This document shows, in pieces, positions 6,431-33,893 of a DNA stretch of 64,000 nt. A program made the position numbers and the translations under genes. Position 1 is the stretch's first letter. Each line of letters opens with the position of its first letter. Location of the stretch: NCBI GenBank assembly GCA_000091205.1, contig AP006497.2. One strand, written 5' to 3'. Source of the DNA: Cyanidioschyzon merolae (taxonomy: Eukaryota). The notes beneath the pieces are model-generated. The model saw only the letters and a program-made list of their open reading frames with translations, was not told the origin of the DNA and did no database searches.

Positions 6431-6543
6431 CGGCGTTGTCGGTGCTTATGTACTCATCTGGGGTGGCGTCCGACCAGTGGGGCTTGACTGAAATGATATA
6501 TGTTGGAGTATGTTTTGTGTGGAGCGTGCATCTGGGGATACAG

Positions 6544-7709: not shown

Positions 7710-8573
7710 ATGTTCCTCTTTGCTAGCACGTTTGTGTGTCAGCGAGCCTGGCCGCGAGCGCGCTTTCGGAACGCCCCGTGTCGGCGCGTGACGTTGGACG
7801 CTAGGGGTGACTCAGTGAGTGCAGGTGCCGAACAGCCGACGCGTCGTCCTGAGGCGCCCGCGAAAAGGCGTGGGAGTCGCTTTCTCATCAAGGTCCGAAA
7901 GTCTGTGCGCACCACACGCAAGCACGGTAGCGTCATTCCAGCTGATGTTTGGTTACCACCCGAACTAACAAGTGACGTTTTGCCTTGCGGCGACAGCAAA
8001 CTCTTGGATAATGAGGCGCACTTACCGGCGCTGGTGCTCAACGCGGACTATAGACCCCTTTCGTACCTGCCACTGTCGTTGTGGTCCTGGCAAGAAGCAA
8101 TAAAGGCGTCGCTTTCGGGTCGCGTTCGTGTTGTTGCCGAGTACGATAAAATTATTCGTGCACCGTCGATGAGCATGCGGTTGCCTGCTGTGGTGTGCCT
8201 CAAGCGCTTTCAGCAGAGCACGGTCTCTCGGGCAGCTTTCACACGTTTTAACGTCTTCCTTCGGGACTCGTTCCAGTGCCAGTATTGTGGTACGAGCGGG
8301 CCTATCACAGATCTGACGTTTGATCACGTCGTGCCGCGTTCGCGCGGTGGCAAGACGTGCTGGCGCAATGTCGTCACCTGCTGCACGGCCTGCAATCGAC
8401 GCAAAGGCGGCAAACTGCCCCACGAAATACCAAATATGACGTTGCAACGTCAACCTTATGTACCGCTATACTGTGAATTGCAGGAAGTGGCCCGTAAGTT
8501 TCCCCCGCGATTCTTGCATGAGACCTGGGCAGACTACCTGTTCTGGGATGTGCCCCTGCAACGAGACGAATGA
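7710..8573 (+). CDS. HNH endonuclease of the bacterial / plastid-type small HNH family, with a roughly 100-aa N-terminal extension (putative organelle-targeting presequence).
   Basis: C-terminal HNH motif FDHVVPRSRGGKTCWRNVVTCCTACNRRKGGK. The upstream LVLNADYRPLSYLPLSLWSWQEAIKASLSGRVRVVAEYDK matches the conserved N-region of the roughly 170-aa bacterial HNH family (LN..Y.PL…W.RA…..GKA.V.E). Confidence 0.8.
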   Translation: MFLFASTFVCQRAWPRARFRNAPCRRVTLDARGDSVSAGAEQPTRRPEAPAKRRGSRFLIKVRKSVRTTRKHGSVIPADVWLPPELTSDVLPCGDSKLLDNEAHLPALVLNADYRPLSYLPLSLWSWQEAIKASLSGRVRVVAEYDKIIRAPSMSMRLPAVVCLKRFQQSTVSRAAFTRFNVFLRDSFQCQYCGTSGPITDLTFDHVVPRSRGGKTCWRNVVTCCTACNRRKGGKLPHEIPNMTLQRQPYVPLYCELQEVARKFPPRFLHETWADYLFWDVPLQRDE

Positions 8574-10893
8574 TGGAGGTTTGGGGTACGAACGTGACTT
8601 GGAAGTGCCCCGCCCCGCGGTTGCGTATCTCGAACGTTTGCCTGTCTGGGGCAAGCCTCGTTAGAATGCAGCACTTCAGTGCGAAGTGAGTATACGAGCT
8701 GCAAGAGCTGTCGACCAATCCACGGAGCGCGCGCTTCGTGGAACCATCTGATTCAGAGGATCCCGGGCAGAGCCATGATCTCTAGGCTTTCGAAGGCGTA
8801 TCGCTGCTTTTGCCGGCATTGGCGCTGTTCGTGGTCCAGATGTATTGGAAGCGAGTCCGACCGAACGCTATGCGCTGTCGAGAGAAACGACTGATTCAGC
8901 GTGTTATTTACTTTGCGATGGAGACGAATCCGCAGGCCACGATCGAGCCCTTTGCGAACAGTGCTTATTTCTGGTCGATCTGTAGATGTGCAGAATGGAG
9001 GTGTCAGGTGCATGGAATGCGCGTCACGATACAACGCGGATCTTGTGGCACGACATGGCATTGCACAGCTGGTACCGAGGAAGCTTCGTCAGAAACCAAC
9101 AGGGAGCTATTCTTTCCGTGTGGAATCGTGAGAAGCGTGCAATCGCTATGGGTTGCCATCCGTCGTGTATTTCAACGCAGCGAGGCCGTTTCATCTAGCG
9201 TGAATTCTAAAATGTGCAGTATCTGCTCATCGGTCAACTGCAGTACACTCGTGTCCGAATGAAGTGGAACCTGTCCACTTGCCTACGACAGGCGCACGCT
9301 CTCAAGTCTGGACAGCTCCCACTGCCATGAACACTGGTCTTTGCGGGCTTTTTATACAACTGATTCTTTTTTCTTCTTGACATCTTCGGCTCTAAACTCG
9401 CCTGGCTCTCCTGCCCGACCAGCTCCATCGTCCGCAATTCAAAGGATTTTGGCGGAGGCGTTCAATTCTCGTGTTCACCGCTTCTGCACGTGATTCACAA
9501 GCACCACGCGTAAGCGGAAAACTTGCGATCTACGCTTCGCTTGTTGCTTTCAATATCTTTTTGTCAGGTTTTGCGCGCCCTTCGCAGCGCTGACGCGTCA
9601 CAATTGGTAACGGTTCCCGAATGCGTCGGCCGCTCCTCGCTCTTCGGTAGACGCCCTGTGGCGCGCTAACGCTCGCTTGATCGCTTGTTTCATGCCCTTG
9701 ACAGGTACAGAAAGGAGGTCTCCGCTGCTTTGCTGTGTTTTGGCTCCTAGTCCGAGCCATGCGAACAACCCCTCGACTGGGAGACGCCCTCGGAGAATAC
9801 TCTGTTCGCTACAGGCGCAAGCGCACGCTGTTCCATTTGATGGAGGAATCGTTGAAAGCGATATTGTCCGGGATGGAAGAAGCACCCGAAAAGGAATTCT
9901 AGGCTCGAGAACACGTCGAGAAATGTTGATCCATCTCCGGCTCCTTGTTTCCAAAATGCTGACGCTTGCTCTATCGGAAGCCGTCGCTTTATGGACAGAG
10001 GTCCATGTCCAAGACACGTGTCCGTGCAAAAACCAGGATGCCGATGCCTTTCGAGGCATATCTCGTGATAGGCTTCGAGCTGGTGTCGCATGCATTTTGC
10101 CGATGGCCTCTAAGAGAGGGGCAATTTGTTTCTTGAGCGGAATCGATTCTTTGAAGTGAAAAGATCGTTGAATTCGCAGCGTGAACCTGTGAACAAGCAA
10201 TCAACGGATGACGTCGAGGTGTTTCCCTTTTCAAGTCAGCGGTGCGAATTCCAACGGCCACGATTTGTCCTGGAACAGAGAGATCGAAATCTTGAAAAAT
10301 GTGAAATTTGAGCATGCTACACGTACAAAAAGGAGAAGCGTGGAAGCCTGCACATGTTAATTGGATGAAGATATCCACTTTTTTAAGAGCTCTTGTTTCA
10401 TTGTGTCGCGAATCATTTCGATTCCGGCGACGTAACGAATTCCAGCAGCAAAGGATCGAAGGAATCGCTGCGAAAAGACTACCAAGAATAACAAACCCCG
10501 TATGCAACCGAACGTTCTTTCTACTGTTCTGCGACCACCAAAGCTCCACGTCTAGAACATCTTCTGAAAAACAATCACAACGCAGGAACAAAGCGACTGC
10601 TTCAGTGTTCCGTGTTTATCCGACACAACTCCAGCGGACGGAAATCTGTCCCTATCCGAGAACAGCGAATAGTTGCAACGCAGGCATGCCCTGCACCCGA
10701 TCGCATCAGGTAAACGGCCTTCTTCGATTGAGACAACGTTTCTCCGCACCGGGGATTCCCGATTTATCCATCCCACAGAGCAGGCAAACCATGGAGATCA
10801 CGTATTCGGTGAAAGCGTTGTCACCAGGTCTCCTCTGGTTGCGTTCAGCGCGATTGCATGCCCATGGACGTTGCCATACGACGCATCGGTCGC

Positions 10894-11966: not shown

Positions 11967-12302
11967 TCTCGCTACTGCTGAACAGCGTTTCGCGCCACGT
12001 GTGGTGGATGAGCTTAGGCGCTGCTCGATCAATGTTTACGCCAAGAGCTACCCGCATTGCTCTGTGGCTTGCAAACCCGGATGCTGGCCGACCGCATGGG
12101 TCCAGTACGTGCTGCTGCCAGATGAAGATCGAAGAACGAGTAGTTTTGGTGTTTAGGGTTCTCGGAATGGAGGCTCATTCCTGGTAGCGTTCATTAGAGA
12201 TTCGCAAAAGAAGCCGCCGATGATTTCAGGGCTGGGTTGAGCGTCTTTTGCGCGCTAGATGACAGGCGTATGCAGAGGTATCCACCATCAAGCACCCTTC
12301 GG

Positions 12303-12698
12303 GACCTCAGTAGTCACCATTCGAAAAGCAACCATCAGCGTGGATGACGCAAGTGCACATATTCCCCGAAGCAGCAGCACCAGCACAAGCAGCAGAGCGC
12401 GCATCCTTGCATACAGATGCAAGAGAATCATCCAGCGCACCGCATTCCGCGGGCACTTGCGTTGTGGTGCCCGCTGTCCATTCGTTGCACGCCAGCAATA
12501 CCATTGAGAGCGATTGTTTCGCAGCCCCAGGTCCCGATTTATGACAACGCTCAGCTCCAGTGCGTGTATGGGCACTGCCAGTCTCAAGTGTGGCATGGAA
12601 TCTGACGCCCTCAACGACCCAGAGGAGGCGCTCTGTAGGAGTCGTCGTCGCCACTGCGTTCGGTGCCAAGCACGCACGCATCATGCGCGTGCGCGTAC
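12303..12698. repeat. Right arm of the inverted repeat pair (partner 6544-6937).
   Basis: See the left arm; the reverse complement aligns at about 96% identity. Confidence 0.9.
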
Positions 12699-12954
12699 CT
12701 TCTAGGCACAAGGTCCAGCGAATCGGATGCGCACACGGGTCCAGTGCGCTCTCTGCGCCTACCCACTGTGGTGGGTGTCAAGCACAAACCCGCATTGCCA
12801 ACCGACAACGCATTCCATGCATGATCACGAAGGAGAGAGGCCGCTCCCAGGATTCATCCTAACAGCCAAGTTTCTCCAGCGTGTCGTGCAGCGAAGGCAA
12901 GCCTGCATCCGCAGACTGTCTGAGCACAAACTGACGACGAGACCCGATTCTACG

Positions 12955-13250
12955 TCGTGTAAACCACGCTTCGAGCCGACGCCCTCTGTGGTATAGAAAA
13001 GCTATTCTAGCTCTATGAACTATCTGCTCCAGCGGTTCAGGCGCAAAGGCGGATGATTAGGGTAGGTACTAGACACACCCGATAGGGCATATGAGACGAC
13101 CAGAATATCCGAGAAGAAGTATAGGTAATGTAACTTGGGAGTAGGAGGTTGATGGATACTTCACCTCGCACTGAAAAACCCAAAAAGAAAAGAAAAATGC
13201 GCATAATCGGAGAACGCTGGCCTATGGAAACGTTTCGTCAATGAAAAAAA
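12955..13250. repeat. Copy 2 of the roughly 300-bp dispersed repeat family (copy 1 at 1250-1565), in the same orientation, about 260 bp outside the right IR arm.
   Basis: Alignment to 1262-1560; the ends are well conserved and the middle is diverged. Confidence 0.6.
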
Positions 13251-13429
13251 ATGTGCATGCGCGCCGTCGCCGCGTCGCTGCGTGCGTGCCCCGTCATCGA
13301 TGCCGTGCACGCGGTAGCGCTGAACGCTCTAGCGAGCGAGGCAGCAGCGTCTTCATTCCTTCTTTGTGACAGAGGCACCGCGCTACCTTCATACGTCTTG
13401 ATCTGGTTACCTCACAACGTGCATAGCGT

Positions 13430-14287
13430 TTGAAACTGCACTCGTATCCTACTTACAAAGGACGTGGCGGCGTGAGAGGAAAAGCAGTGGCACGGACGCG
13501 ATCCCGCGAGATGGATACCACCGCCAGCTACCACGTGTTGCTGGTGTTGCTCTCCGTTGAGACTTTTCTCTTCTTTGCAGTTATTGCACAGACAGCAGTG
13601 CAGGAGCCGCTCGCACACGGGAAAATCGCCCGCTTTTTTGGCCTTGCTTTTCTGTCAGAGTCGGTTGCGGGCCTCGCACTTGCAGTTACGCCACTGCTGC
13701 GCGGAAGCGTGTTCCTGCTGGACCTTTTTGCGCTGATCGCTGTTGTGGCGATATGGGCGGGCGCCGCTGTTGCAATCATTGGTGCGGCACACGTTGTTTT
13801 TCCAGAGGATGCGAGACGGGAAGTTCGGGTAGCTCTGGTCGTGCTGTTTGCGTTTGTGTTCGCGTTCGGAACCGCGCGTCTCTATGTCGCAGTAAGTGCC
13901 GCGACACCGGCTTTGCCCCTCTGGTCCACAGACTCGCTGCGGGTGTCTGTTGCGGTTAGCCAGGGCGCTATGGCCAGCGTGGGTGCTGCTTGTGTCCTGC
14001 GAGCGCTGGCTCGACCGAAAATACGGGGCCGGAACGGGGCTTCAGTTTTGCTCCTGGGAACCTTGGTTTGCCTTGTAGGTTCAGTGATTTGGACATGGCT
14101 GTTAGGCAAATGCGAGTTGTCGCAGACGTTGGACAAGGAAGATGTACGGTGTCCGCTTCCACCGGTGTTCGATCACAACGCTCTTTACTGTCTGTTTCTT
14201 ATTGCAGGCAATATTCTGAGTGCAGAAGGCGTCCTGCGTCTTATGGCTGTCGGGGACGGCGCGTTGAACTATGCAGAGATTCCCTGA
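13430..14287 (+). CDS. Hypothetical multi-pass membrane protein with about 6-7 predicted TM helices. The start is possibly the internal Met (MDTTASYHVLL).
   Basis: Successive hydrophobic 20-aa stretches (LLVLLSVETFLFFAVIA, LFALIAVVAIWAGAAVAIIGA, VALVVLFAFVFAFGTARLYVAV, VLLLGTLVCLVGSVIWTWLLG). No family recognised. Confidence 0.45.
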   Translation: MKLHSYPTYKGRGGVRGKAVARTRSREMDTTASYHVLLVLLSVETFLFFAVIAQTAVQEPLAHGKIARFFGLAFLSESVAGLALAVTPLLRGSVFLLDLFALIAVVAIWAGAAVAIIGAAHVVFPEDARREVRVALVVLFAFVFAFGTARLYVAVSAATPALPLWSTDSLRVSVAVSQGAMASVGAACVLRALARPKIRGRNGASVLLLGTLVCLVGSVIWTWLLGKCELSQTLDKEDVRCPLPPVFDHNALYCLFLIAGNILSAEGVLRLMAVGDGALNYAEIP

Positions 14288-14856: not shown

Positions 14857-15637
14857 CGATGACGAAAGCGAATTTTTCCATGATGAAACAAGTACCGGAA
14901 GGAATGCGCAGTTTGCATATACTGTCGAGACATACCGATCGATCTACGCTCCCCTTGTGCAGAGCGATGACCCAAGCTCCTCTGCAGGATATCGCTGGGT
15001 CCACAGCACGCCGTGCTCAAGATGCTTTTCTTTGCAAGCACTGGAGACAGGAGTCTCTGGAGGCACGTCCCGTGAGCGGTTTCGTTCGGCTGTGGACTGC
15101 CGTTTCTTCCACAGCGACAAAGGGATGAGGATTTGTGTCTCGAACCGGATCGATTGCTTGCTGACGTTCCAGGTCCAGGGAGTATGCGGCGCGCGCTCCT
15201 GAACACGTCCTCAAGCCACGTCGTCGAGTTTTGGTCTCTCGTCTATCCAGCGGCGTGCACGACCGCGCCCTCGACTTGCCCTGAACTCGAAAGATCCACA
15301 GCATGAAACATGTGTGATTTGCGCACAGTACACGTCATGACATGGGAAGCGTGGCGGCGTGTCCGTATGAACTGCATCACGATAGCGGTTGGTTAGGATT
15401 CCTTGCTCCAGCGTGTCGAGAATCAGCGTGCCTGCTGTAGCATACCGAGAATCCGGCGGCAAAGAGACGATGGAGCCAGTCCGAAAAGGCATCGAAGCAC
15501 CCTAAATTTACGTATGAACCCGAAAGCCCATCTTGCAGCACTGAGCGTGTCGAGTCTATATACCTACAACATTGGACGGGAGCAAAACAATCGAGTCGCA
15601 GAAACAGTGAGGAGTAGAGCGCTCCACCGTCTTCTGA
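14857..15637. repeat. Copy A of a roughly 780-bp direct repeat pair (copy B at 22193-22967).
   Basis: Nucleotide identity is about 97-98% over the full length. Identical overlapping ORFs appear in several frames in both copies (for example MFRSARRILPGPGTSASNRSGSRH…). Confidence 0.9.
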
Positions 15638-15805
15638 CACGAGAGTTGTTCGCGTTCGCAAGCCCTGCAACGGCGGGTTCTCAGCCAGAACCGGCGGTGG
15701 ATCTTGCTCTTCTGCCATAGCGTACTCGTTCAAGTGACAAAAACACGTGCCAGTTGCGTGCGTTTCTCTGTCGCTTCTTGACAGCGGTGCTTACACCCTG
15801 GACTT

Positions 15806-17194
15806 TTGCTCTGCTTCGTGTTACTCGTGGGTACGGAAAACCAGGGCTGTAACAAGAACGCATTTCCCTACGACCTGTCTGTGTTGGGGAAGCTGCTGGG
15901 CGAGGACGCTGCAGCACCCGGTTCAACGCAGGTGAGCGCTCTCGTCTTGACGCCTTGGAGCATGCAACCAGGCACCGAAGATGATCCGCTTCCGTACTCT
16001 GAAGCAGTAGTTGAGCCACTTACTCTAGAGTATGAAGCTCCAGAGCACGACACTATGCTGGGAAACGGAGAAGCGGCGCGAGCGGGCAGTGCGGGAACCC
16101 CAAGCCGCCCAGCGCATCCCGAGGATGCAGTCAGTTTTCGTTTTGATCCCAAAGTTTGGGAGCAGGTGCACCTGAAGGATGAGAGCAACTTGATTTTTTA
16201 CGAGGGCGGCCTCGACGACGAAAACGACGGCACAGCTGGAGGTTTCGACGAGATTCAGGAGCAGTTTCGGGAATCCGAGGAAATACAGGCCTCTGGGGCG
16301 CATACTCAGTCAAACTCGGCGGAGCACAGTTGTATGAGCGCGCCGTTCTACTTCTTATGGGGTATAATGCTACGCATTCTCCAACCTTATTTCGAAATCG
16401 ATAGTAGCGATGTGATGCTCCGCTTGAGCCGCTCATTCGTACCTATTCGACCACTGCTCGCCGGCGAGCATCACCAGATGAATATGGTATTGCGCCTGCA
16501 CAAAATATGGACCAGGATTCGCCAGTTTTCTCAGGCGCGTTCGCCGGAAACCGCTGAAACTAATGCGACTATCGACAGTGATATCAGCGACGACGAGTGG
16601 ACCTACTCGAGGAGAGCGGACTTGTATGGGCCGTTCTGGATCGCGACCACCTTGATCCTGTTACTCTCGCTGAGCGGGACAGTTTCTCACCTGCTTCATC
16701 GTGCCTCGGTGCATGCTGTACAGACAGCAAAGGCGTCTACAGCTGTGAAACCGGTTTGGAAGACCTCTGAGATTATCCGCCTAACCGTTTCAGCAGCGAT
16801 TATCTATGGATACGAGCTTCTGGCCGCCACTGTGCTTTGGGCGCTGCGGCTTGTTTATCGTTCGCAGGGCCAAGTACCGCCCTGGACTACCATGTTGTGC
16901 GTTGTAGGGTATGCTCAGGGCCCGCTGGTACCGGCGTCATTGCTTGCGCTGTTTCCCTATCAGTTCTTTCAGTTTGTTGTTATGGTTGTTGCTTTTGCCC
17001 TTAGCGTGGGTTTTTTGGCGCGCAACCTGCTAATTGAGCCACTGGCCGGCGCCGATACTAGTCTGGATGCTGGTGAAGCCACGATTACGGAACCTATCTG
17101 GTTGTTGAAGCAGCGTGCACTCGTGCCGGCGCTTGTAGCTGGCTTGCTCCAGATCGGCTTTGCGATCTGGTGCGTACTCTTCATCATTCTGTAA
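15806..17194 (+). CDS. Yip1-domain family membrane protein, with an acidic cytosolic N-region and a C-terminal 5-TM bundle.
   Basis: DLYGPFWIATTLILL motif (the DLYGP hallmark of the Yip1/YIF1 family), a GY motif (VVGYAQGP), and five C-terminal hydrophobic helices. Confidence 0.55.
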   Translation: MLCFVLLVGTENQGCNKNAFPYDLSVLGKLLGEDAAAPGSTQVSALVLTPWSMQPGTEDDPLPYSEAVVEPLTLEYEAPEHDTMLGNGEAARAGSAGTPSRPAHPEDAVSFRFDPKVWEQVHLKDESNLIFYEGGLDDENDGTAGGFDEIQEQFRESEEIQASGAHTQSNSAEHSCMSAPFYFLWGIMLRILQPYFEIDSSDVMLRLSRSFVPIRPLLAGEHHQMNMVLRLHKIWTRIRQFSQARSPETAETNATIDSDISDDEWTYSRRADLYGPFWIATTLILLLSLSGTVSHLLHRASVHAVQTAKASTAVKPVWKTSEIIRLTVSAAIIYGYELLAATVLWALRLVYRSQGQVPPWTTMLCVVGYAQGPLVPASLLALFPYQFFQFVVMVVAFALSVGFLARNLLIEPLAGADTSLDAGEATITEPIWLLKQRALVPALVAGLLQIGFAIWCVLFIIL

Positions 17195-17633
17195 ATGGGA
17201 AAACGCTGAAAACCATATCGGAATCCGAGTATGTGACGAAAAGCGGTGTTTGAACGGGTCCGGAGACGATTCAGGAAGCAAGCAATGCAATGCATTTGGA
17301 TGCTAATGATATCTATGTTTTGACATCGTTGGCCTTCATGCACGCACTAGAATTCCGGTGCGAGGAAGCGGCTCGGGGTCCGTTCTCACTGCAGCTGCAG
17401 TGTCGATTGGATCGAGTCCTTCCGTACAAACAGAAGCGACTCATGGCTGCTGGAGAATGCACTGGTCCTCTGAGCGCGGGCGACACCGGCCCCCAGAAGA
17501 AACAACAACAGAAGACAGAGATGACAGGGAATAGCTCCATTAGCTTTTCTAGATTAGAGACAAAACGTATGGAGTGCCTTGCCGCCGTTGTCTTAGAACG
17601 CTGTTCCGCAGGGGCGTCGGCATCGACAGCCTA

Positions 17634-17825
17634 CGGCGTCTTCGATGCCCCTTGCAGACCAAGAATGCGTGACCGCCCGCTGGTATAGGGCGCTGTAGCA
17701 ACTACTTGGAGCGTCTTCGATGCCCCTTGCAGACCAAGAATGCGTGACCGCCCGCTGGTATAGGGCGCTGTAGCAACTGCTTGGAGCGTCTTCGATGCCC
17801 CTTGCAGACCAAGAATGCGTGACCA
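17634..17825. repeat. 75-bp minisatellite of about 2.6 tandem copies, roughly 470 bp upstream of the PMS1 start.
   Basis: Unit ggagcgtcttcgatgccccttgcagaccaagaatgcgtgaccgcccgctggtatagggcgctgtagcaact(a/g)cttg repeated head-to-tail. The 75-bp period also shows as repeated 25-aa blocks in the ORF track. Confidence 0.9.
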
Positions 17826-18294
17826 CATAACGACGGTGGCCATAGTAGCTGGCGACCGGGCGCCAGTGACAAGTAGACTCGAGGAGTTTTCATGAACAAG
17901 CGTCTTGTTCCGGGGACTGCTGCTTCCTATCCCCCATATACATCCGTATTCCGAAAGAAGCTTCCCATTGGTTTTCGATCACCAAACGCATCTATACATC
18001 TATCAAGTCTAGTATGGGACTGTCCCATCGCGCGTCATGAGCATCGGACATTGCGACTTCATCCTGTGTGGTAGAGCGTGAGCGCCAGAGACACAATGTC
18101 CAGATTTGTGCGCTTTCAAAAAACGCAGCGTTTCGTACCCGGACAACGACCACACCACCAGGAGCGTTTCTCGACCAGTGAGTCGAGCGCCTGCACAAAC
18201 TGGGTTACTCTTCGTCTTTGGAAACAAGAGCAATATGTTTTCTGTATCCTAATGGCGTCGAACGCCCTGTCAACGGCTGCTTTCTTATACCTTC

Positions 18295-20787
18295 ATGCTC
18301 CAGACGCTACCGCCTGAAGTGGTGCGCCACCTCACCAGCGCTCCCGTGGTAACAAGTCTAGCCAGTGTTACCAAGGAACTGGTTGAAAATGCACTGGATG
18401 CAGAGGCAACCCAAATCAGTGTCTTTCTCTCTGGATATGGCCTGGAGTTCATCGAAGTAAGCGACGATGGCTGCGGAATCGCCAAACAGGACCTTGAGCA
18501 GCTCGCGCAACTCCACACAACCTCAAAGCTTCGAGCTTTCGCGGAACTATCGAGCATATCTACGTACGGGTTTCGCGGCCAGGCTCTAGCATCACTGGCT
18601 ATGACGGGTCGACTGGAGATTTCATCACGACCGCGAGATCGGGACGCCTCGGCGGTACCTGGCGTCGCTTTTCGTGCTAGGTACCAGGCTGGTAGGCGCA
18701 TCTCTGACCTGGAGCCCGAGGCGCGTCCCTATGGTACGACGGTGCGCGTATATGAACTCTTTGCATCCATGCCCGTTCGTAGACGGGAGGCAGAGTCTCA
18801 GAAAAAACGAGAACTTCAAAAGGCAATTCAAATCCTGCAGACGTATGCGTTAGCGGCGCCCACGGTGCGCTTTTCGGTTCAGTGGACGCCGAAAGGTCGC
18901 GAACGTCCAACGCTCTGCCTAGCCACACAGGGCAAATGCACGCTCCGTTCGTGCTTCAGCCTGTTGTACGGTGCGGAACAGCTCACGAAGCTGGTGGACC
19001 TCGCGGTAATTGTAAAGTGGCCCACACCGCTGCCCGGTGCCTGCACAGAACCTGAACTCCACATGCGGGGCCTCCTGAGCCGATGTTACCCAGCAGCAGG
19101 GCGCTCTGCCCCAGATCGACAGATGTTGCTACTGCAGGCAAAGCGGCCGGTGCAGTGGACCAGAATGCGCCGAATGTTGGACTCGGAGTTTCGCCAACGA
19201 ACGTGCACTTCGCTCTACCCTGTTTACGTGTTGGCCATCGACCTGCCACCAGATACCTTCGACGTCAATGCGAGTCCCGACAAAACCGAGGTCCTCATTC
19301 ACGACGATGCAGCGGTGGTTGCCTCGGTTCGGGAGGCATTGCGTACATCATGGACACAGGTGGCTGACGTCCGCACCAGGGCCCCATTCTCGGTGCAGAC
19401 TGGAAAGTGCGCCGATGCGCGAGCGAAAGCCCCCGACGATCATCTGCGAGCTGCTCAACTAGCGAATCAGCTGGAATGGTCTGTCACCACAGAACAGAAG
19501 CGAGACACTAGTCAGAGGCTTGTCACAGATGCGAGACCCGCATGCGTCAAGGAAAGTGCTACATCGACGCTCGCTGCGTCGGAAACGACGCTGTCGTCGT
19601 CAGGGATGAGCGCGGGAGTTTGCGTCGCCTCGAGAGCTGAAGTAGAGGCTGCGTCCTTCATCGTCGACCATGTGAAGCCGCACACAACCGAACAGCCATT
19701 CCGTGAATCCCTGCAAGCATCCTCGGCGGCGGTTGCGGCGACGACGGGAGCCCATGAACAATGGGAAACAGCTGAGCCACTTGCTCAGCGATGGACGCAT
19801 CACAACGCTGAGGCTGCCTCTAGCGGAACGGAGTCCTCGGGCACGATTCATAGAAGCGCGGATACGATCCTGAGTGGTGTGAGCGGTGTCAACAGCCACG
19901 AGCACGATCGTGTAGTCGCTCGCGCGTCTGGTGCGTCCATGGAGCGCTGGCTCGCAGTCCACGTCGTAATCGATCCTTTCCAGTGGACGTCATCTGCGAA
20001 TATCTCTCGCAGCTCAGGTTGCGCCCGCGATGCCGACTTGCCGCATGTGGAGCCTATCATTCGTGCCCGTGTTGGTGAGCGTTTGCAATTGGCGTGCCTC
20101 TTGGAAGCCAGTACTCCGAATACGACGGAGGATTGCGTCACAGAATCAAGCACTGAGGCAGACCGGGAACTAGAACAGCGATTTCACAAGCATTGGTTCG
20201 AAGAGATGCGTATCATCGGTCAGTTCAACTGCGGTTTCATCCTCGCAACCTATGGTTCCGACCTTTTCATCATCGATCAGCACGCGGCTGACGAAAAGTA
20301 CATCTATGAGTCATTGGCGAGGGCATTGCGTCCGCGTACACAGAGCATGCTCCAGCCACTTTCGATACCCGCTTCGGCCTCGGAAGAGCTCACGCTCTGG
20401 GAACAGCGCGAAAACCTGGCAGCGCTTGGGTTCGAGCTCGAGTTTCGGTGGAGTGCGCCTCCCACGGAGCGTGTCTGGATGTTGGGAGCTCCCACGGTAT
20501 GTCAGACGGTGCTGGAAGCAACCGACTTGCTAGAGATTGCGCATCAAGCACCGCTCACTGGTCGGGTTGCCGACCTGCTGCGTGCCAGTCGAGTGAAGTT
20601 GCTGCTTGCGACTCGCGCTTGTCGTCGAGCAGTGATGATCGGGATGCCGCTGGATCGTACCCACATGCAGAGTATTGTTGCTCGTTTGGCGACGCTGGAG
20701 CAGCCGTGGAACTGCCCACACGGACGACCGACAATGCGTCATTTAGTACGGGTCTCCGAAATCGGGTTCCGCAGGGCGGTCACCTGA
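18295..20787 (+). CDS. PMS1: DNA mismatch repair protein of the PMS1/PMS2 class (eukaryotic MutL homolog carrying the endonuclease motif), 830 aa, single exon.
   Basis: GHKL ATPase motifs KELVENALDAEAT, EVSDDGCGI and TYGFRGQALASL. A long disordered linker. A C-terminal dimerisation/endonuclease domain with FIIDQHAADEKYIYESL (DQHA(X)2E(X)4E). Confidence 0.9.
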   Translation: MLQTLPPEVVRHLTSAPVVTSLASVTKELVENALDAEATQISVFLSGYGLEFIEVSDDGCGIAKQDLEQLAQLHTTSKLRAFAELSSISTYGFRGQALASLAMTGRLEISSRPRDRDASAVPGVAFRARYQAGRRISDLEPEARPYGTTVRVYELFASMPVRRREAESQKKRELQKAIQILQTYALAAPTVRFSVQWTPKGRERPTLCLATQGKCTLRSCFSLLYGAEQLTKLVDLAVIVKWPTPLPGACTEPELHMRGLLSRCYPAAGRSAPDRQMLLLQAKRPVQWTRMRRMLDSEFRQRTCTSLYPVYVLAIDLPPDTFDVNASPDKTEVLIHDDAAVVASVREALRTSWTQVADVRTRAPFSVQTGKCADARAKAPDDHLRAAQLANQLEWSVTTEQKRDTSQRLVTDARPACVKESATSTLAASETTLSSSGMSAGVCVASRAEVEAASFIVDHVKPHTTEQPFRESLQASSAAVAATTGAHEQWETAEPLAQRWTHHNAEAASSGTESSGTIHRSADTILSGVSGVNSHEHDRVVARASGASMERWLAVHVVIDPFQWTSSANISRSSGCARDADLPHVEPIIRARVGERLQLACLLEASTPNTTEDCVTESSTEADRELEQRFHKHWFEEMRIIGQFNCGFILATYGSDLFIIDQHAADEKYIYESLARALRPRTQSMLQPLSIPASASEELTLWEQRENLAALGFELEFRWSAPPTERVWMLGAPTVCQTVLEATDLLEIAHQAPLTGRVADLLRASRVKLLLATRACRRAVMIGMPLDRTHMQSIVARLATLEQPWNCPHGRPTMRHLVRVSEIGFRRAVT

Positions 20788-20856
20788 TACCTGGGCAATG
20801 CAGATAGATCGTTTGCAGACGATGTATACGGTATGCATGAAGTAACCCGACTTTAG

Positions 20857-21195
20857 ATGCACTCCAGACGAGTGCTGGTTGTATTGGGTCTGCGTGCGAA
20901 TGCAGTGCGGGTTACGAAGGTAGAATCCTTTATGTTTTGTCGTGAAGATTTTCGCCGGCTCGTCTCGCGATGCGTAAAGTTTATGTCAAGAGAAGGGGAC
21001 GAGCCTCATCGAAATGAGGCGCGAACTACTTCTACTTCTACTGATGCTGCTGCTGCTGGTGGTGGCGGTGGCGGCGGTGGCGGTGCTAGGTGCATTGCAT
21101 TCCGGGCCAGATATCGCTATTTAGAACCCGAGTTTCCGTCCTGGAAACTATGCGACAAGATCTCTGAAGACCATGATGAGTGCTCTGTGCATTGA
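20857..21195 (+). CDS. Small ORF with a poly-Ala/poly-Gly tract encoded by (GCT)5(GGY)9. Doubtful as a gene.
   Basis: The ORF sits just downstream of PMS1. It is low-complexity and no family was recognised. Confidence 0.15.
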   Translation: MHSRRVLVVLGLRANAVRVTKVESFMFCREDFRRLVSRCVKFMSREGDEPHRNEARTTSTSTDAAAAGGGGGGGGGARCIAFRARYRYLEPEFPSWKLCDKISEDHDECSVH

Positions 21196-22192
21196 CGCAA
21201 GCCAGAGTACGTTCCACGGATGTCAAGGAGGATTGTTCGACCTCAAAACAAACCGTGCTCTGCGCTTTGAACGGAGCACGCTGCAGTGGGTTGCACGGGT
21301 ACATGAAATCAATGTTGGACCTGAAGCAAAATGTTCTTTCGTGCCTGTAATCCAATTCACCCGGTACGAGCGGAATAAGGCGTCTGGGTCTCAGCCGTCG
21401 TAGAAAGGCAGACAGCAAGCTCGATAACCTCGTCGCAGTGCAGACTATGTATGCGCTTACTTCACAAAATATTTAGCGTCACAGACAAGTCATGCTTTTG
21501 TGCCAAAATCGTAGGAAAAAGTTCGATTGCGTTTCCTAAAGAACCAATTCGAGTATCACGAAACAGGTTTATCCAACGCATCCTCACAATCGTGGCAGAA
21601 TGAAGTGAAACGATTTCAACCAGCCTATTCTGGCGTTCAAATGAGTGGTTGAGTATATCCGGCTGTTACCAAAACTGGTCTTTGCGCGCTCGTTCGGTAA
21701 TGTCTTTCGTATACCTTCGGCAAGCTTCTGCGCTGGGTGTGCAGGTCTCCTGTGTCATTCGAGCTTCGGTTTCAGTAGTGGATGGATATTGATGGCAACG
21801 GTAGTGGTACGATGCCGCAATTTCGAGTTGCTGTCGAGGCATTTCATGCACAGAAGGTAGTTGCGATCAACGTTTTGCTCGCCATGATCATCTTCATTGC
21901 AGACAGCTTCGGTGGGCGCTTTGTACCGCTGACGCATGCCTGTGATAAGGTGCCCCCATATGTCCATCGTGCCTCCGTTCCCGATAGCCGCCCTGGGTCG
22001 CGTCAAGGCCAGCATCATCGCTCAGGAACCGTCCTCGAAGCGTACAGAAGGTGTCAGTGGATACCCGCTCCCGTTTCCGCGCCCGTTGCCGTGCCCTACA
22101 ACCATGTGCTTCTTCTGGGGGATCCACTCCTCGAGTACGCTCTCCACTGCACACGAAAGCGCATGATGTGCTTTGCAGTTGTGGATTTGCAG

Positions 22193-22967
22193 AAAGCGAA
22201 TTTTTCCATGATGAAACAAGTACCGGAAGGAATGCGCAGTTTGCATATACTGTCGAGACATACCGATCGATCTACGCTCCGCTTGTGCAGAGTGATGACC
22301 CAAGCTCCTCTGCAGGATATCGCTGGGTCCACAGCACGCCGTGCTCAAGATGCTTTTCGTTGCAAGCACTGGAGACAGGAGTCTCTGGAGGCACGTCCCG
22401 TGAGCGGTTTCGTTCGGCTGTGGACTGCCGTTTCTTCCACAGCGACAAAGGGATGAGGTTTTGTGTCTCGAACCGGATCGATTGCTTGCTGACGTTCCAG
22501 GTCCAGGGAGTATGCGGCGCGCGCTCCTGAACACGTCCTCAAGCCACGTCGTCGAGTTTTGGTCTCTCGTCTATCCAGCGGCGTGCACGACCGCGCCCTC
22601 GACTTGCCCTGAACTCGAAAGATCCACAGCATGAAACATGTGTGATTTGCGCACAGTACACGTCATGACATGGGAAGCGTGGCGGCGTGTCCGTATGAAC
22701 TGCATCACGATAGCGGTTGGTTAGGATTCCTTGCTCCAGCGTGTCGAGAATCAGCGTGCCTGCTGTCGCATACCGAGAATCCGGCGGCAAAGAGACGATG
22801 GAGCCAGTCCGAAAAGGCATCGAAGCACCCTAAATTTACGTATGAACCCGAAAGCCCATCTTGCAGCACTGAGCGTGTCGAGTCTATATACCTACAACAT
22901 TGGACGGGAGCAAAACAATCGAAACGCAGAAACAGTGAGGAGTAGAGCGCTCCACCGTCTTCTGACG
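22193..22967. repeat. Copy B of the roughly 780-bp direct repeat pair (copy A at 14857-15637).
   Basis: See copy A. Confidence 0.9.
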
Positions 22968-23252: not shown

Positions 23253-25406
23253 GTGCTCAGCTCTGTGCTCGACATAGCAGCTGCAGTTTTTGCAATGTTT
23301 GATACGGAAAACGGCATCGTCTATACCATTGAAGAAGCCGATCCTGAACAGCTTTCGTCAACGATAGAACAGGAGAGCGATGCCTCATCAGCTAGTGAAC
23401 TCTCCTTCGCTGCAGAGTTTTTCGACTGGACAGGTCCGGAGGCGCTAGTAGAGAACGCTGCCTCTCGTCGAAGATCGGAGTCTGAACAAGCACGCGTTGA
23501 CCGGGACCCACGCCACGAAACTCCTGAACACAGAGCTAATCACCACGTCACCGATTCTGGTGAAGGCACCAAGCCTGACAGCAACGGCACCGATGCGCAT
23601 ACGGCGCTCGCTACTCATGATCGTCTGAAACCGCTTGAGAAACGCGTTCATGCTGCTAGCGCTACAAAGCATTCCAGCCCAGAGGCGAAAGTTGATACCG
23701 TCCGACAAAGCGAGTCTTGGGCGGCGCTTGCGCTCTCGCCTCGCATGCTACGGGTCGTCGAGTCGCTGGGCTGGATGCAACCAACTCCTATTCAGGCCCA
23801 AGCGATACCGGTTGCACTCGCTGGACGAGATGTGCTCGGATCTGCTGTAACGGGCTCCGGGAAGACGGCAGCCTTCCTGATCCCCATTATCGAGCGTCTG
23901 TATCGGGCGCAGCGTGCCGATGGCGTACGCTTCGCCGCTGATGCCTCACAGACTGCAGCTATACGCGTTCTTATCGTCTTACCGACTCGTGAACTCGCAG
24001 TCCAGTGTCATGCGGTGCTTGAGGCAATTTGCGATCGTACGGCGAGGGAAAGTGCACGCCGGATGAAGCAGGGCGTCGCAAAGTTCGTTGGCACGCCCGA
24101 GCAGACGCGCCTTCGCTCCGTGCTCCTAGTCGGTGGACTAGCGCTGAAACCGCAGGAACTCGCGCTGCGCCATGTTCCAGATATCATCATTGGTACCCCG
24201 GGGAGAATCATTGATCACGCTCGAAACGCTCCAAACTTCACTCTCGATGACGTTGAAATCCTGGTACTCGATGAAGCAGATCGATTGCTGCAGATGGGCT
24301 TCATGGATGAACTGCGAGAGGTGGTTCGACTATGCGCGGCGAGTGCGCCCTATCGACAGACGATGCTGTTCAGCGCGACACTGGACGCTGGTGTTGAGGA
24401 ACTGGCTCGTTTCGCGCTCGCGCCGGATCGAGTTGTAACGGTTCGCGTGGATGCTACGTTTGATCTCGTTGGAACGCTTGTCCAAGAGTTCGTGAAACTG
24501 CAAATGCCCGAAGTTCTCGTGGAGCCGGCACAAGATACGCGCGATACCCTGACGCACGCCGAGCAAGTTGTGCAGACTGAGCGCGCCGCGTTATTGCTGG
24601 CGCTCTGTTCCCGCAGCTTCACCCGCCGAGTCATTGTTTTTTTCGCCCGCAAAAGGACTGCACATCTCTTCAAAATTATCTTTGATCTCGTCGGACTACG
24701 TGCCGCGGAGTTGCACGGGAACCTAACCCAGGCGCAGCGCCTTGATGCATTGGAGGCCTTTCGCACCTGCACCAATGCAGATTTTCTGCTCTGCACCGAT
24801 CTCGCAGCGCGGGGCCTCGATATCCACGGGGTAGAAACGGTGTTGAATTATGAGTTGCCGAAAGATATTCGGGAATACGTCCACCGGGTGGGCCGCACTG
24901 CACGCGCGGGTAAGCATGGTCGGGCAGTCTCGATATTCCAACAGACAGACCGGAAGGAGCGTCATCTGCTGCGACGCTTGCGGGAGCAGGCTCGACGATA
25001 TCGGGTAGATGCTCTCCGGGGAGATGCACCTGTACCCGCTCCTGTTCTCCTTGAACGTCGAATACCTGCAACGGTGATCCGGGAGTGGCGTGATCGGCTG
25101 CATTCCCTCCTGGATAGCGTTCGAGAGAAACTGCGACAGGAACGGGAGCATCGGGAGCTCGAACGTGCTGAACGGCTCGAGCGAAAAGCGCATAATCTTC
25201 TCATCCATGAGCAGGAGATATATGCACGACCGCCGCGAACTTGGTTCCAGAGCAAGGCCGAACGAAAACGTGCGCAGATGGTTGATCAGGAACCTGCCTC
25301 GAAGGAGCGTTCTGAACGTTCTAATTCTCACAAACACGATAAGGTGCGGAAGCGCAAGCTGGTAACAGCGACAAATCGAGGTGCGCACAACCGGAGTAGG
25401 ATGTGA
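23253..25406 (+). CDS. DEAD-box ATP-dependent RNA helicase of the Drs1/DDX27-like class, with a basic C-terminal tail. 717 aa, single exon.
   Basis: Motifs: Q-motif region, I AVTGSGKTAAF, Ia PTRELAVQ, II VLDEADRLL, III SAT, and VI HRVGRTARAG. The K/R-rich C-terminus is typical of nucleolar DDX27/Drs1. Confidence 0.9.
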   Translation: MLSSVLDIAAAVFAMFDTENGIVYTIEEADPEQLSSTIEQESDASSASELSFAAEFFDWTGPEALVENAASRRRSESEQARVDRDPRHETPEHRANHHVTDSGEGTKPDSNGTDAHTALATHDRLKPLEKRVHAASATKHSSPEAKVDTVRQSESWAALALSPRMLRVVESLGWMQPTPIQAQAIPVALAGRDVLGSAVTGSGKTAAFLIPIIERLYRAQRADGVRFAADASQTAAIRVLIVLPTRELAVQCHAVLEAICDRTARESARRMKQGVAKFVGTPEQTRLRSVLLVGGLALKPQELALRHVPDIIIGTPGRIIDHARNAPNFTLDDVEILVLDEADRLLQMGFMDELREVVRLCAASAPYRQTMLFSATLDAGVEELARFALAPDRVVTVRVDATFDLVGTLVQEFVKLQMPEVLVEPAQDTRDTLTHAEQVVQTERAALLLALCSRSFTRRVIVFFARKRTAHLFKIIFDLVGLRAAELHGNLTQAQRLDALEAFRTCTNADFLLCTDLAARGLDIHGVETVLNYELPKDIREYVHRVGRTARAGKHGRAVSIFQQTDRKERHLLRRLREQARRYRVDALRGDAPVPAPVLLERRIPATVIREWRDRLHSLLDSVREKLRQEREHRELERAERLERKAHNLLIHEQEIYARPPRTWFQSKAERKRAQMVDQEPASKERSERSNSHKHDKVRKRKLVTATNRGAHNRSRM

Positions 25407-25674: not shown

Positions 25675-26714
25675 ACGCTGCAGCTGGTAAAAAGAGGTAC
25701 CTCCAAAGACGCTGATACTCTCCGCTAATCGAGCTACAAGACATGCTCTGCAAAGAAGAGCTAGGAAGGGCTCTTGCAGTATGCTGCAGCTGGTAAAACG
25801 AGGTACCTCCAAAGACGCTGATACTCTCCACTAATCGAGCTACCTAGACATGCTCTGCAAAGAAGAGCTAGGAAGGGCTCTTGCAGTATGCTGCAGCTGG
25901 TAAAACGAGGAACCTCCAAAGACGCTGATACTCTCCGCCAATCGAGCTACCAAGACATGCTCTGCAAAGAAGAGCTAGGAAGGGCTCTTGCAGTATGCTG
26001 CAGCTGGTAAAACGAGATACCTCCAAAGACGCTGATACTCTCCACTAATCGAGCTACCTAGACATGCTCTGCAAAGAAGAGCTAGGAAGGGCTCTTGCAG
26101 TATGCTGCAGCTGGTAAAACGAGGAACCTCCAAAGACGCTGATACTCTCCGCCAATCGAGCTACCAAGACATGCTCTGCAAAGAAGAGCTAGGAAGGGCT
26201 CTTGCAGTATGCTGCAGATGGTAAAACGAGATACCTCCAAAGACGCTGATACTCTCCACTAATCGAGCTACCTAGACATGCTCTGCAAAGAAGAGCTAGG
26301 AAGGGCTCTTGCAGTATGCTGCAGATGGTAAAACGAGATACCTCCAAAGACGCTGATACTCTCCACTAATCGAGCTACCTAGACATGCTCTGCAAAGAAG
26401 AGCTAGGAAGGGCTCTTGCAGTATGCTGCAGATGGTAAAACGAGATACCTCCAAAGACGCTGATACTCTCCACTAATCGAGCTACCTAGACATGCTCTGC
26501 AAAGAAGAGCTAGGAAGGGCTCTTGCAGTATGCTGCAGATGGTAAAACGAGATACCTCCAAAGACGCTGATACTCTCCACTAATCGAGCTACCTAGACAT
26601 GCTCTGCAAAGAAGAGCTAGGAAGGGCTCTTGCAGTATGCTGCAGCTGGTAAAACGAGGTACCTCCAAAGACGCTGATACTCTCCGCTAATCGAGCTACC
26701 TAGACATGCTCTGT
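25675..26714. repeat. Tandem satellite with a 106-107-bp unit in about 10 copies, showing higher-order alternation of two unit subtypes. It lies in the intergenic region between the DEAD-box and acyl-CoA synthetase-like genes.
   Basis: The unit cagctggtaaaacgag(g/a)(t/a)acctccaaagacgctgatactctcc(g/a)c(t/c)aatcgagctac(c)(t/a)agacatgctctgcaaagaagagctaggaagggctcttgcagtatgctg recurs head-to-tail. Variant positions alternate in copies 3-6 and are homogenised in copies 7-10. Confidence 0.95.
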
Positions 26715-30085: not shown

Positions 30086-33000
30086 AGAATCGCGTTGACA
30101 GAGAGGCATGGAGGCAGACAGTGGTGCATTTCGCTATGGCAGCCGATCCTAGTGCATCCAGATTCTGGGCACGGTTTGCAAAGGGACCTACTTGGGCGAC
30201 AAGTCGGGTAGATGCCATTATTCATCTTTCGCATGGTTGCGAGTATTGCATTCCAGACGGTCTTTATGATCGTATGAAACGAAATGTTAATGTGACGGTG
30301 GCAAAATCTCATGGCGTCCTACAGTGTACGCAGAGCAGTGCTTTTGGATACACATGTGTGAGCGCGCTCCCTTTTTTGTTGTTGTTTTTCGAGTAGGTAT
30401 TCAACAAAATGGGTGTATCCATAATATTCGAGAGACGTGGCCGGAACACGTGAAGCTACCCCTTGAAGCTTGTGGAAAATGGATTCACTTGCTCTAGAAA
30501 GTTTTGTCTAGGCTTAATAGGTGGGTGAACCATGTCTCTTTCAGGTCTGGTTGCGAGCGTCATGGACCTAAACAGACCATGTCAAACATAATTCACGCAA
30601 TTGGCCCCTGGTCAGTACGTATCACTCCCGATATTCTCTACGACCTATGACAAAACGCCACAGGATGTGAGGTTCACACAAGGATCATACTTATAATCAT
30701 GCATAGACACAGATGGAGGGAACAAAGCATGCCTTGATGTGCGATTCGTGCATATTGAACAATACACGATCGATTCGGGAGTGAAATGCGAACGCCTGAT
30801 ACAAGAGCGAAAAGCGTTCGTCTCAGTTGATGAGAATGTCCTCACGCGAAATGATAGATATGGATATGGGGATCGAATGGATGACAAAGCGCTGTTCCTA
30901 AGGAAGAGACAAGCCAGCATAATGACATCTTCGGTAATAGCGACGACTTAGCCGTGTGAAGGCCTACAAGACGCGTCAAACGGAAGATATCGCTCAACAC
31001 CAGAACCGTCGTTGAAGCAGTTCTTGCCTGCATTGTCCCGTATTCGGCGGTCATGCTCCTGCTCAGCGCGACTTCCCGTTGTTCCAAAGCGGTCGAGGTG
31101 TACGCAGCTGACGTTGGTTTTGCGATACTGCACTTGCGAACATCTCCTCCCTGGTTCCGTTCAATCGACGGCGTATGCTGTCTTGTCGAACACCATCTCT
31201 ACGACGGCGTATACGTAGACGAGTCATTCGCATCTGGAACATCAAAGTTCTTCGAGGAGTCGTACGCGACCTTCACCAGTCCTGAACGGGCCTGTTGCTC
31301 CTCTGCACATGCGTAGGAGCGGACGGAGCGGCGCGCTTCGGTACGTGAGCGTGCTCGCGACAGCAAAGGCCTAAACCGTACATGAGGAATTGTGTTCACT
31401 GATGCATCGAAGAGAAGGGCACCATTGCCAACGTCTACTCAGGTCGTCTGATTTCCGTTGACTCAATGGGCTTGGAGTGGAGCGCCCACGCCTACGCAAA
31501 CCTGAAAACTCACGGAGAAGGCGAAGCGGTAGAAGGGGAAGAATGTCACCTCACAAGCAACAGTCAGTTGCTTTCGAAAACAGCACAAGGAGAGATCGGA
31601 AGGAAAACTGGTTGTTGCGGGGAGGTCACTCTGGACGCAGTGTCAACGCCTCGCTATGACGACACGTCAACGGGGAGGATCCTCCAAAAAACGAGTTTCG
31701 GGACGCCATGAAGTCTCTCGAAGCTTTCCTCATCTTGATGCGCATCGTCAAACACTTGTGCTTAGGCGAACCGGACGCACGATTTCGGTCTCCCGTACAC
31801 TTCTTGGGATTTGCTCTATCCATCCGGCATGCGGCAACACAACTGATACCCAGGCCAGAAGATGCAACACCGCCTGATTGTAGGATAAGAACGTTGAAAA
31901 CGCGCTCTCGAGGATAGCTTGCGGCGTCGCCGTGCCACCTCGGCGATGAGCGCGTCTACGACGCGTTTGCGGAAACTTGTGAAACTAACCTCCGCATCCA
32001 TTTGTGGATCGGTCTGGAGCACTTGAGAAAGTATATCTTGTCGGTGTTGGGCGGTCGTATTCTCGGAGCATCGGTCGAGAACGCGGGAACCTATGCAAGG
32101 AAGGAATCCTTAGAATGTCGATTGCGGCAGATGACGTGCTGACGTTGGCGGCCGATGCTATCGATGCGCTTGTGCGTTCCAAAGAGGTGTCGCAACGAGC
32201 GCGTTGATCGCTGCAGATCATCGAAGTTCATTGGGTCGCTCACGGCCTCGCAGCGGCGGACATCGTACCCCACGCTAGATGAACCGCGATGCATCTTGCG
32301 CTATGACAATATCGAGAAGCGAACTCCCCCGAGCCAGGCGGACTTTCTTTCCGAATGCGAGCGCCCGAGCCGCTTCCACCGGCAATGACATGTGGTACCC
32401 GAACGGGAGCTAGAGGCCGAGTATATCATCGTTGACGCATGGATAGCGTATGGTCTCCTTAATGGGCTATGGCTGGTCTCTGCGACCAACATTGCAGCAT
32501 TCGAACAGCTTCGCGAAGAGCATCGGCCGCGCTTGTTCAAGATTTCCCGTTTACCGGAAAGAGAGACACAGAAGCATACATAGACGAGTGAGAGCAGCAG
32601 ACGATCCTTCTGCATGTGCTATGTTAGACTCAGTGCTGAGTCGAATAACGGGGCTCGTTTTCAAATGCTCCAGGTAGCTTTTACAGACACTGCGTGGCGG
32701 GCGTAGATTCCTGGTTGATGGGCGTCGTGGCGGTCGCAGTACCGCCAGACCAAGGTGACAGAGCCAAGAGACCCGTACGCAAAGCAAGTGAAGCTGCCCG
32801 ACTTGCCCAGTGCCCAGGATCGTCGAGTCGGGCATGATATACGCCCGGGTGCATACGAACGAGCGGCATGACTGCTTCATGGACCATGGCAACGCCCTGA
32901 GCATCGTATCGCGCAGAAGGAAATGCTTTGTACACTACGGTATGTGCGCTAATGAGCGTCCACACGGCTGTTGTGGACGATTTCTGGCCTCGGTACATAA

Positions 33001-33750: not shown

Positions 33751-33893
33751 TGAAAATTAGCAAGTACCTTAGATCTGTACCAGGATGTCACCTTTTATTA
33801 GAATGCATGTGGCGAAGAAGGCAGCGCAACAGATTGAACGCTGCACTGCTGAATTGCGTTTCCTCCTCAAAACTGATCGAGTCCTTCGAAGCT

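Follow-up and report, generated by a model that had tools for sequence, protein, structure and literature searches.

Do near-identical direct repeats on either side of a mismatch-repair gene form a genetic switch, or do they persist for reasons that have little to do with the gene between them? The question is raised by a 64,000-nucleotide stretch of contig AP006497.2 from Cyanidioschyzon merolae, a red alga (assembly GCA_000091205.1; below, the window). In it two direct repeats, R1 (14864-15638, plus strand) and R2 (22192-22966, plus strand), flank a complete PMS1 gene and a Yip1-like gene. A first-pass annotation read this arrangement as a mutator switch, in which recombination between the repeats would loop out PMS1. 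C. merolae, a model for gene targeting, is put forward as the eukaryote whose fully finished genome is the simplest. That conserved single-copy genes, PMS1 among them, are enclosed by 775-bp repeats that recombine has a bearing on strain stability and on the design of targeting constructs and polymerase chain reaction (PCR) assays at the locus. We consider it probable that R1 and R2 are passive copies, one truncated and one part of a full-length member, of an old non-coding element, and that gene conversion keeps the two alike.

The repeats themselves are well defined. In a BLAST self-comparison of the window, each copy is 775 bp long and the two differ by 7 mismatches and no gaps (99.1% identity). 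The repeats of the first-pass annotation are thus confirmed, with its size (about 780 bp), identity (about 98%) and coordinates slightly off. Both copies start with GAAAGCG and end with TTCTGAC (GA...AC). Their edges are abrupt, and the sequences that adjoin them on the outside have nothing in common (z about 0 when their alignment is compared with shuffles). From start to start the copies are 7,328 bp apart, and 6,553 bp of unique DNA separates them. As first annotated, this interval holds the complete PMS1 and Yip1-like genes, together with a minisatellite and a poly-glycine open reading frame (ORF).

Look-ups with PMS1, with the 258-aa gene of the left flank and with a 93-aa ORF internal to the repeat (R, where no particular copy is meant) retrieved about 30 contigs of the locus, which are 99.1-99.6% identical to the window. 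Four independent contigs (L001, L002, L015 and L016) contain both copies and both outer flanks in the order of the window, and four more (L003, L014, L034 and L036) contain one copy, the inner unit and the entry into the other copy. The structure is therefore real, and the arrangement is intact in every spanning contig examined, across several samples. One could still suppose that one copy of R, or the entire duplication, was mis-joined in the window, and it is true that short-read assemblies of the locus frequently break within R, where many of the shorter contigs end. However, the junctions of R with unique flank on both sides of both copies are all read in many independent contigs from different samples, and four contigs span the entire structure; we regard an assembly artefact as scarcely credible. 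R breaks or collapses most metagenome and metatranscriptome contigs, and this affects short-read assembly and the calling of single-nucleotide polymorphisms (SNPs).

R belongs to a longer and older interspersed family, termed here family E, which has two more copies in the window and was overlooked in the first-pass annotation. With R1 as the nhmmer query, matches were found within the window at 9854-10594 (E=4.6e-52) and 41314-42005 (E=7.4e-38). When the copies are compared with their surrounding context, homology extends over ~1.37 kb. E2 (21584-22966, plus strand) is a full-length member of ~1.38 kb between PMS1 and a DEAD-box helicase gene, and its 3' 775 bp constitute R2, which ends about 328-329 bp upstream of the helicase ATG. 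E3 (9243-10628, plus strand), between an HNH gene and a GST gene, and E4 (40736-42076, plus strand), between an FKBP gene and a Nup85-like gene, are old and diverged members. E2 matches E3 at E=2.3e-85 and E4 at E=1e-82 (nhmmer), and pairwise identity among the three is ~56%.

R1 lies in the spacer that separates the 258-aa gene from the Yip1-like gene. It matches only the 3' half of the family E profile (positions 692-1475, nhmmer) and is without the 5' 608 bp of E2. Upstream of 14864 no family E homology was found, either by nhmmer or by alignment of the 5' side of R1 with the 5' part of E2 (z about 0). At the opposite end, conservation within the family fades at ~22970, which coincides with the end of R to within about 15 nt. 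Because R1 covers only the 3' half of the profile, and because the conservation of the family stops where R ends, R1 can be recognised as a 5'-truncated copy of E2 that keeps the 3' terminus of the element. R is the 3'-terminal 775 bp of an interspersed, non-coding element of ~1.4 kb, and is neither a long terminal repeat (LTR) nor a gene.

The non-coding character of the repeat, for which the first-pass annotation had recognised no coding or RNA-gene signature, is borne out by Pfam, Rfam, tRNA and codon-periodicity searches. A protein-coding gene or pseudogene was rejected, given that substitutions show no codon-phase bias and that tblastx scores are alike in all frames and on both strands. 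ORFs in R, or in any copy of family E, have no Pfam match, and the 224-aa ORF of E2 has no homologue beyond the R1/R2 locus. A known RNA gene was also rejected: there is no Rfam match at the gathering threshold or at E<=1, and ARAGORN finds no tRNA. Conservation is flat along the element, without conserved islands, as expected under neutral decay.

Relative to the sister genera, the elements are insertions. In the sister-genus loci (Cyanidiococcus L011; L012/L013) the order of the 257-aa gene, the Yip1-like gene, PMS1 and the DEAD-box gene is kept, and searches with blastn, tblastx and nhmmer found neither flanking repeats nor E-like sequence in these loci. The spacer between PMS1 and the DEAD-box gene is ~760-790 bp in the sister loci and 2,507 bp in the window, a difference of about the length of E2. 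That between the 257/258-aa gene and the Yip1-like gene is 962-1,106 bp versus 1,530-1,674 bp, a difference of roughly the length of R1 (775 bp), and that between the FKBP and Nup85-like genes is 312 bp in Cyanidiococcus versus 1,744 bp, the difference being E4 (1,341 bp). Given these shorter, repeat-free spacers, family E behaves as a once-mobile interspersed element of the Cyanidioschyzon lineage. Family E would have colonised intergenic spacers of this lineage and left a full-length copy, E2, between PMS1 and the DEAD-box gene. R1 may then have arisen, before the sampled strains diverged, either as a 5'-truncated, retroposition-like copy or by local copying at the DNA level.

What kind of element could leave such a pair? 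The first-pass annotation had raised the possibility of an LTR or solo-LTR, which is refuted by several features of the locus. The interior consists of host genes (the Yip1-like gene and PMS1) in an order conserved in the repeat-free sister loci. The termini are GA...AC, not TG...CA; the flanks share at most 3-4 ambiguous nucleotides, with no target-site duplication of 4-6 bp; and one of the supposed LTRs is merely the 3' part of a longer element, E2. C. merolae has also been reported to be without LTR elements and to contain only non-LTR retrotransposons, in 26 copies (Nozaki et al. 2007, PMC1955436).

Arguing for non-LTR retroposition, R1 combines 5' truncation with a 3' terminus shared by the family, as target-primed retroposons do, in a species whose retrotransposons are reported to be only of the non-LTR kind. 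Counter to this, R1 is tail-less and has no clear target-site duplication. An A-rich or simple-repeat tail and a convincing target-site duplication are in fact absent from R1, E2, E3 and E4, and a Pfam scan of the ORFs in the window found no reverse transcriptase. With a donor only 7.3 kb away, R1 fits local DNA-level copying or conversion equally well as retroposition. C. merolae is also known to carry an interspersed element of 253 copies, with a mean length of 3.2 kb and covering ~5% of the genome, which is transcribed and has a truncated ORF weakly similar to WSV486 of white spot syndrome virus (Nozaki et al. 2007, PMC1955436). Compared by description only, family E is similar in being dispersed, mostly intergenic, apparently transcribed and non-autonomous in the same type of genome, but differs in its length of ~1.4 kb and in having no frame-conserved ORF.

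How, then, do two copies of so old an element come to be nearly identical? In the contigs searched, R at the ~99% level is a two-copy pair and not a high-copy element. The 93-aa ORF, which R1 and R2 encode identically, has 43 blocks on record; the longest 24 contigs were read, and 10 of the 10 places listed have either the 258-aa gene, R and the Yip1-like gene or PMS1, E2 and the DEAD-box gene. A scan of JGI metagenome contigs with one 28-mer of R returned two contigs, both from the R1/R2 locus, and is uninformative on other copies in the genome.

Alleles close to the edges of R, where they can be assigned to one copy by the adjoining unique flank, are shared between the copies. The A10/G13/A55 haplotype (numbered by position in R) lies beside the R1 flank in L020 and beside the R2 flank in L034, a contig from the same sample. 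A10/G13 lies beside the R2 flank in L006, L026 and L030, and T10/T13 is found in both contexts elsewhere. At positions 732 (G/A) and 733 (T/A), each allele occurs in both R1 and R2 contexts. The divergence between R1 and R2 (0.9%) is near the allelic level, strains differing by 0.4-0.7% in unique DNA, and far below the ~44% by which other members of the family have diverged. Polymorphisms shared by both copies and a divergence of this order are what concerted evolution produces.

We interpret the presence of the same flank-proximal alleles in R1 and R2 across strains as the result of gene conversion between the copies, which would also explain why the two are ~99% identical when other family members are ~56% identical. 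This agrees with one option in the first-pass annotation, namely that the repeats are homogenised by conversion. In an alga whose homologous recombination is efficient, and at a distance of 7.3 kb, R1 and R2 would repeatedly exchange sequence in this way, and the locus would provide a clear case, in a natural red-algal genome, of conversion between repeat copies that are dispersed.

A second family of the window lends support to this interpretation. Family G, also non-coding and ~1.4 kb long, has related copies at 30343-30974, 33056-33756, 38897-39486 and 49432-50860. Two of these contain a near-identical direct pair (33298-33749 and 38931-39382; ~450 bp, 99.3% identity, 5.6 kb apart). Older homology, shared with a third copy (49432-50860), surrounds this near-identical tract, the family sequence of one partner being extended in the 5' direction and that of the other in the 3' direction. 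A tract of near identity inside older homology is the pattern expected from conversion between old copies.

Several points weigh against the reading of R1 and R2 as passive copies homogenised by conversion. Only flank-proximal sites, which single reads or k-mers can phase, count as evidence of conversion, as the interior of R may be collapsed in the assemblies. For the same reason we discounted the agreement of interior R1 and R2 SNPs within short-read contigs (alike within a strain, differing between strains), a pattern that repeat collapse also gives. The origin of R1 is ambiguous, with no poly(A) tail, only 3-4 nt of ambiguous identity at the junctions and no clear target-site duplications. 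The count of family E copies covers the 64-kb window. Finally, consensus assemblies would miss rare deletion or circle molecules, so that their absence is weak evidence.

A different reason for the persistence of R might be sought in transcription. Five independent contigs of ~1.9 kb (L021-L025) run from ~13.33 to ~15.24 kb, and so comprise the 258-aa gene and ~950 nt beyond it, ending at R position ~375. Several other contigs start at 15316-15361 (R position ~453). These common ends and starts within R, together with the poly(A)-tailed contig L005 discussed below, suggest that R is transcribed and that it may hold a transcript end (~375) and a transcript start (~453), the sample types of the contigs being inferred.

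R could on these grounds be retained as a functional intergenic module, a shared 3' end and 5' leader that provides one and the same upstream region to the Yip1-like gene and to the DEAD-box gene. Besides the coincidence of contig ends and starts inside R, this would account for the similar distance from the 3' end of R to both ATGs (323 nt for the Yip1-like gene and ~328 nt for the DEAD-box gene) and for the position of all four E copies, each downstream of, and co-oriented with, a plus-strand gene. However, the sequences between R and the two ATGs are unrelated, the flat conservation of family E offers no islands on which such a function might rest, and contig ends are not mapped transcript ends, the assignment of samples to DNA or RNA being inferred. 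Moreover, E3 and E4 lie between convergent genes and cannot be promoters of a downstream gene, which makes a general promoter role for family E unlikely. Overall, we think it improbable that R is kept for such a function.

As a separate observation, the R2 copy of L026, a contig with the PMS1 of the 10D type, has five clustered T-to-A differences and a 2-bp deletion at contig positions 7025-7050 (R2 positions ~358-380). The cluster is near the point at which contigs of the 258-aa gene end in R1, and could be either a real divergent haplotype or an artefact close to an RNA 3' end.

We return to the switch with which the locus was first explained. As a rival explanation, it would have recombination between the two repeats employed, or favoured by selection, as a means of removing PMS1, with mismatch-repair-deficient mutator subpopulations as the outcome. 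The ingredients are in place. The repeats are direct, 775 bp long and 99% identical, their shared flank-proximal alleles show that they interact by recombination, and PMS1 is intact and of the endonuclease type. The reaction is moreover established in C. merolae, in which a URA marker placed between direct copies of the URA terminator is removed by homologous recombination (Takemura et al. 2018/2019, reviewed in PMC8504449). By analogy with this marker recycling, which takes place in the same organism and excises a cassette by the same type of reaction, pop-out between R1 and R2 is mechanistically possible. In contrast, the recycling of URA is engineered and selected with 5-fluoroorotic acid (5-FOA), and the interval between R1 and R2 carries two conserved host genes. 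The pop-out mechanism of the first-pass annotation is thus a known reaction, but one for which no product was seen at R1/R2.

Several lines of evidence speak against a switch. Among the places listed for 12 contigs with the left-flank gene and 24 contigs with the R ORF, none has the 258-aa gene linked by way of R with the DEAD-box gene, as a deletion would, and the spanning contigs from several samples all retain the intact arrangement. Pop-out would also remove the Yip1-like gene, which is conserved in the lineage, and it would be irreversible, the excised circle being without a known origin or centromere. Three other comparable repeat pairs in the window surround unrelated genes, so that nothing singles out PMS1. 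We therefore find the mutator switch unsupported and consider it very unlikely; as a switch the locus would be of consequence only in the event of deletion alleles, of which there are none among the contigs examined. A crossover or single-strand annealing between R1 and R2 that deleted the Yip1-like gene and PMS1 would more plausibly be a rare, unselected and probably deleterious accident than a switch.

A known mutator switch illustrates what the locus would need. SpyCIM1 and related islands in mutL of Streptococcus pyogenes switch mismatch repair reversibly (PMC4689407, PMC3430984), using a site-specific integrase, excision and reintegration with growth phase, and episomal replication. R1/R2 are like these islands in concept only, in that mismatch repair would be turned on or off by rearranging DNA at a gene of the MutL family. 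They differ in having no recombinase (a Pfam scan of the ORFs in and next to the R1-R2 unit found neither a recombinase nor an integrase), no reversibility and no evidence of excision, and in the additional loss of a second host gene that excision would entail.

Excision has a second conceivable product, since the 7.3-kb unit could exist as a natural extrachromosomal circle or be amplified as a tandem duplication, as the first-pass annotation also suggested. One contig, L005 (7,270 bp), does have the circularly permuted order expected of a circle or tandem, from the PMS1 side through E2/R to the Yip1 side. However, L005 ends with CTGAAAATC followed by A8, ~20 nt past the stop codon of the Yip1-like gene, and begins with the same 9 nt. 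Its poly(A) end indicates that it derives from cDNA. Its structure is also the one expected of a chimera of two transcripts that share R, the first running from ~17206 through PMS1 into R2 and the second from R1 to the poly(A) site of the Yip1-like gene, and the SNPs at the 3' side of its R are of the R1 type. The PMS1-R-Yip1 junction is present in no DNA contig examined. L005, the sole circle-like contig, is accordingly most readily understood as an RNA assembly made chimeric by way of the repeat and not as a circle, and we think a natural circle or amplification unit very unlikely.

A structural parallel is found in Leishmania, in which low-copy intergenic repeats (repeat alignment groups, many of which go back to degenerate SIDER retroposons) bring about both deletion and extrachromosomal amplification (Ubeda et al. 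2014, PMC4028189). Those repeats are defined as low-copy, intergenic, on the same chromosome, 200-2,500 bp long and at least 85% identical (PMC4028189). Four pairs in the window have these properties: 14864/22192 (R1/R2), 33298/38931, 6543/12692 (inverted) and 1265/12968. By this analogy R1/R2 resemble the Leishmania pairs in structure, the pairs of the window being likewise intergenic, low-copy, local (a few kb apart), direct or inverted, and derived from degenerate interspersed elements.

The two systems differ in their products, those of Leishmania being documented by junction PCR and by amplicons under selection, whereas no rearrangement product was found among the contigs here. They also differ in organism and element family, which are unrelated, and Cyanidioschyzon is not known to maintain episomes. 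One might extend the analogy and imagine a Leishmania-like network of local, conversion-homogenised pairs left by decayed elements, in which stochastic pop-out of the 7.3-kb unit yields viable hypermutators null for both PMS1 and the Yip1-like gene that aid adaptation in hot springs. We hold this to be a highly speculative and improbable extension, and prefer to regard R1 and R2 as passive copies kept alike by conversion.

In the left unique flank, the 258-aa gene (13511-14287, plus strand) has no Pfam match, and RNA-like contigs that carry it extend to ~15240, inside R1. The Yip1-domain gene (15962-17194, plus strand; Pfam PF04893, 1.6e-10) is taken from its first ATG at 15962, and the JGI call begins from a GTG at 15818. 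Its poly(A) addition site, seen in L005, is ~20 nt past the stop codon. The protein is divergent, with only cyanidiophyte orthologues found, and an orthologue look-up assigned it to neither the essential (YIP1/YIF1) nor a non-essential orthogroup.

PMS1 (18295-20787, plus strand) is an intact PMS1/PMS2-type MutL homologue of 830 aa with HATPase_c_3, DNA_mis_repair and MutL_C domains (Pfam), and contains DQHAADEKYIYE and CPHGRP, endonuclease motifs that are characteristic of PMS1/PMS2. A JGI/Logan protein matches it at 100% identity, and BAM81427.1/XP_005537463.1 of C. merolae 10D, which is in the same 90% cluster, differs from it by 2 residues; the best named relative outside the cluster is that of Cyanidiococcus yangmingshanensis, at 53%. 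These matches place the window in a C. merolae-type red alga and led us to reject a trypanosomatid source, which GC content, genes on one strand and the repeats had at first suggested. Downstream of PMS1, a 112-aa ORF with a Gly9 run (20857-21195, plus strand) has no family or Pfam match and is probably not a gene. The DEAD-box helicase gene of the right unique flank (23295-25406, plus strand) has Pfam DEAD and Helicase_C domains and is syntenic in L011 and L012, and a look-up found its exact protein sequence absent from protein records.

Two tandem arrays adjoin these genes. The 75-bp minisatellite (17636-17860) has two copies at 99% and a third at 68%, and overlaps a 132-aa ORF called by JGI that has no family match. 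Its 39-nt core occurs three times in the window and one to three times in other contigs, a difference that stems either from polymorphism in copy number or from the collapse of short reads. A 107-bp unit is repeated ~9.7 times (25677-26713; 95-98% identity) in the interval from the DEAD-box helicase to an AMP-binding gene. This array is shorter in short-read contigs, a difference for which assembly collapse may account.

Further repeats are spread through the window, whose GC content of 55% accords with a C. merolae-type source. The near-identical family G pair brackets three ORFs without a Pfam match (34202-35005, 35182-35967 and 36876-38360), and several contigs break there. Just downstream of a family G copy, a 123-bp unit is tandemly duplicated (33884-34133, 98.4%). 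The HNH gene, E3 and the GST gene are enclosed by an inverted pair of 388 bp (6543-6930 and 12305-12692; 97.9%), with weaker similarity over 6520-7013 and 12216-12717. The pair is kept in L016 and is a potential substrate for inversion. An older direct pair (1265-1610 and 12968-13285; ~330 bp, ~86%) lies 11.7 kb apart. Together, families E and G take up ~8.2 kb (roughly 13%) of the 64-kb window, in a genome that has been called almost free of repeats.

Gene order in the window also departs from that of Cyanidiococcus at one break (window 39494-46469 versus L011 1-5174). A block comprising a class II tRNA synthetase (D/K/N type), the Nup85-like gene and the FKBP gene is directly upstream of the 257-aa gene in Cyanidiococcus, and is here ~25 kb downstream and inverted. 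Repeat copies adjoin both inferred synteny breakpoints (12.2-13.3 kb and 38.9-39.5 kb). Finally, an ORF of 287 aa at 7710-8573, in a nuclear red-algal region, encodes an HNH endonuclease domain (PF01844/PF14279) and may be a prokaryote-derived, horizontally transferred gene or a selfish one.

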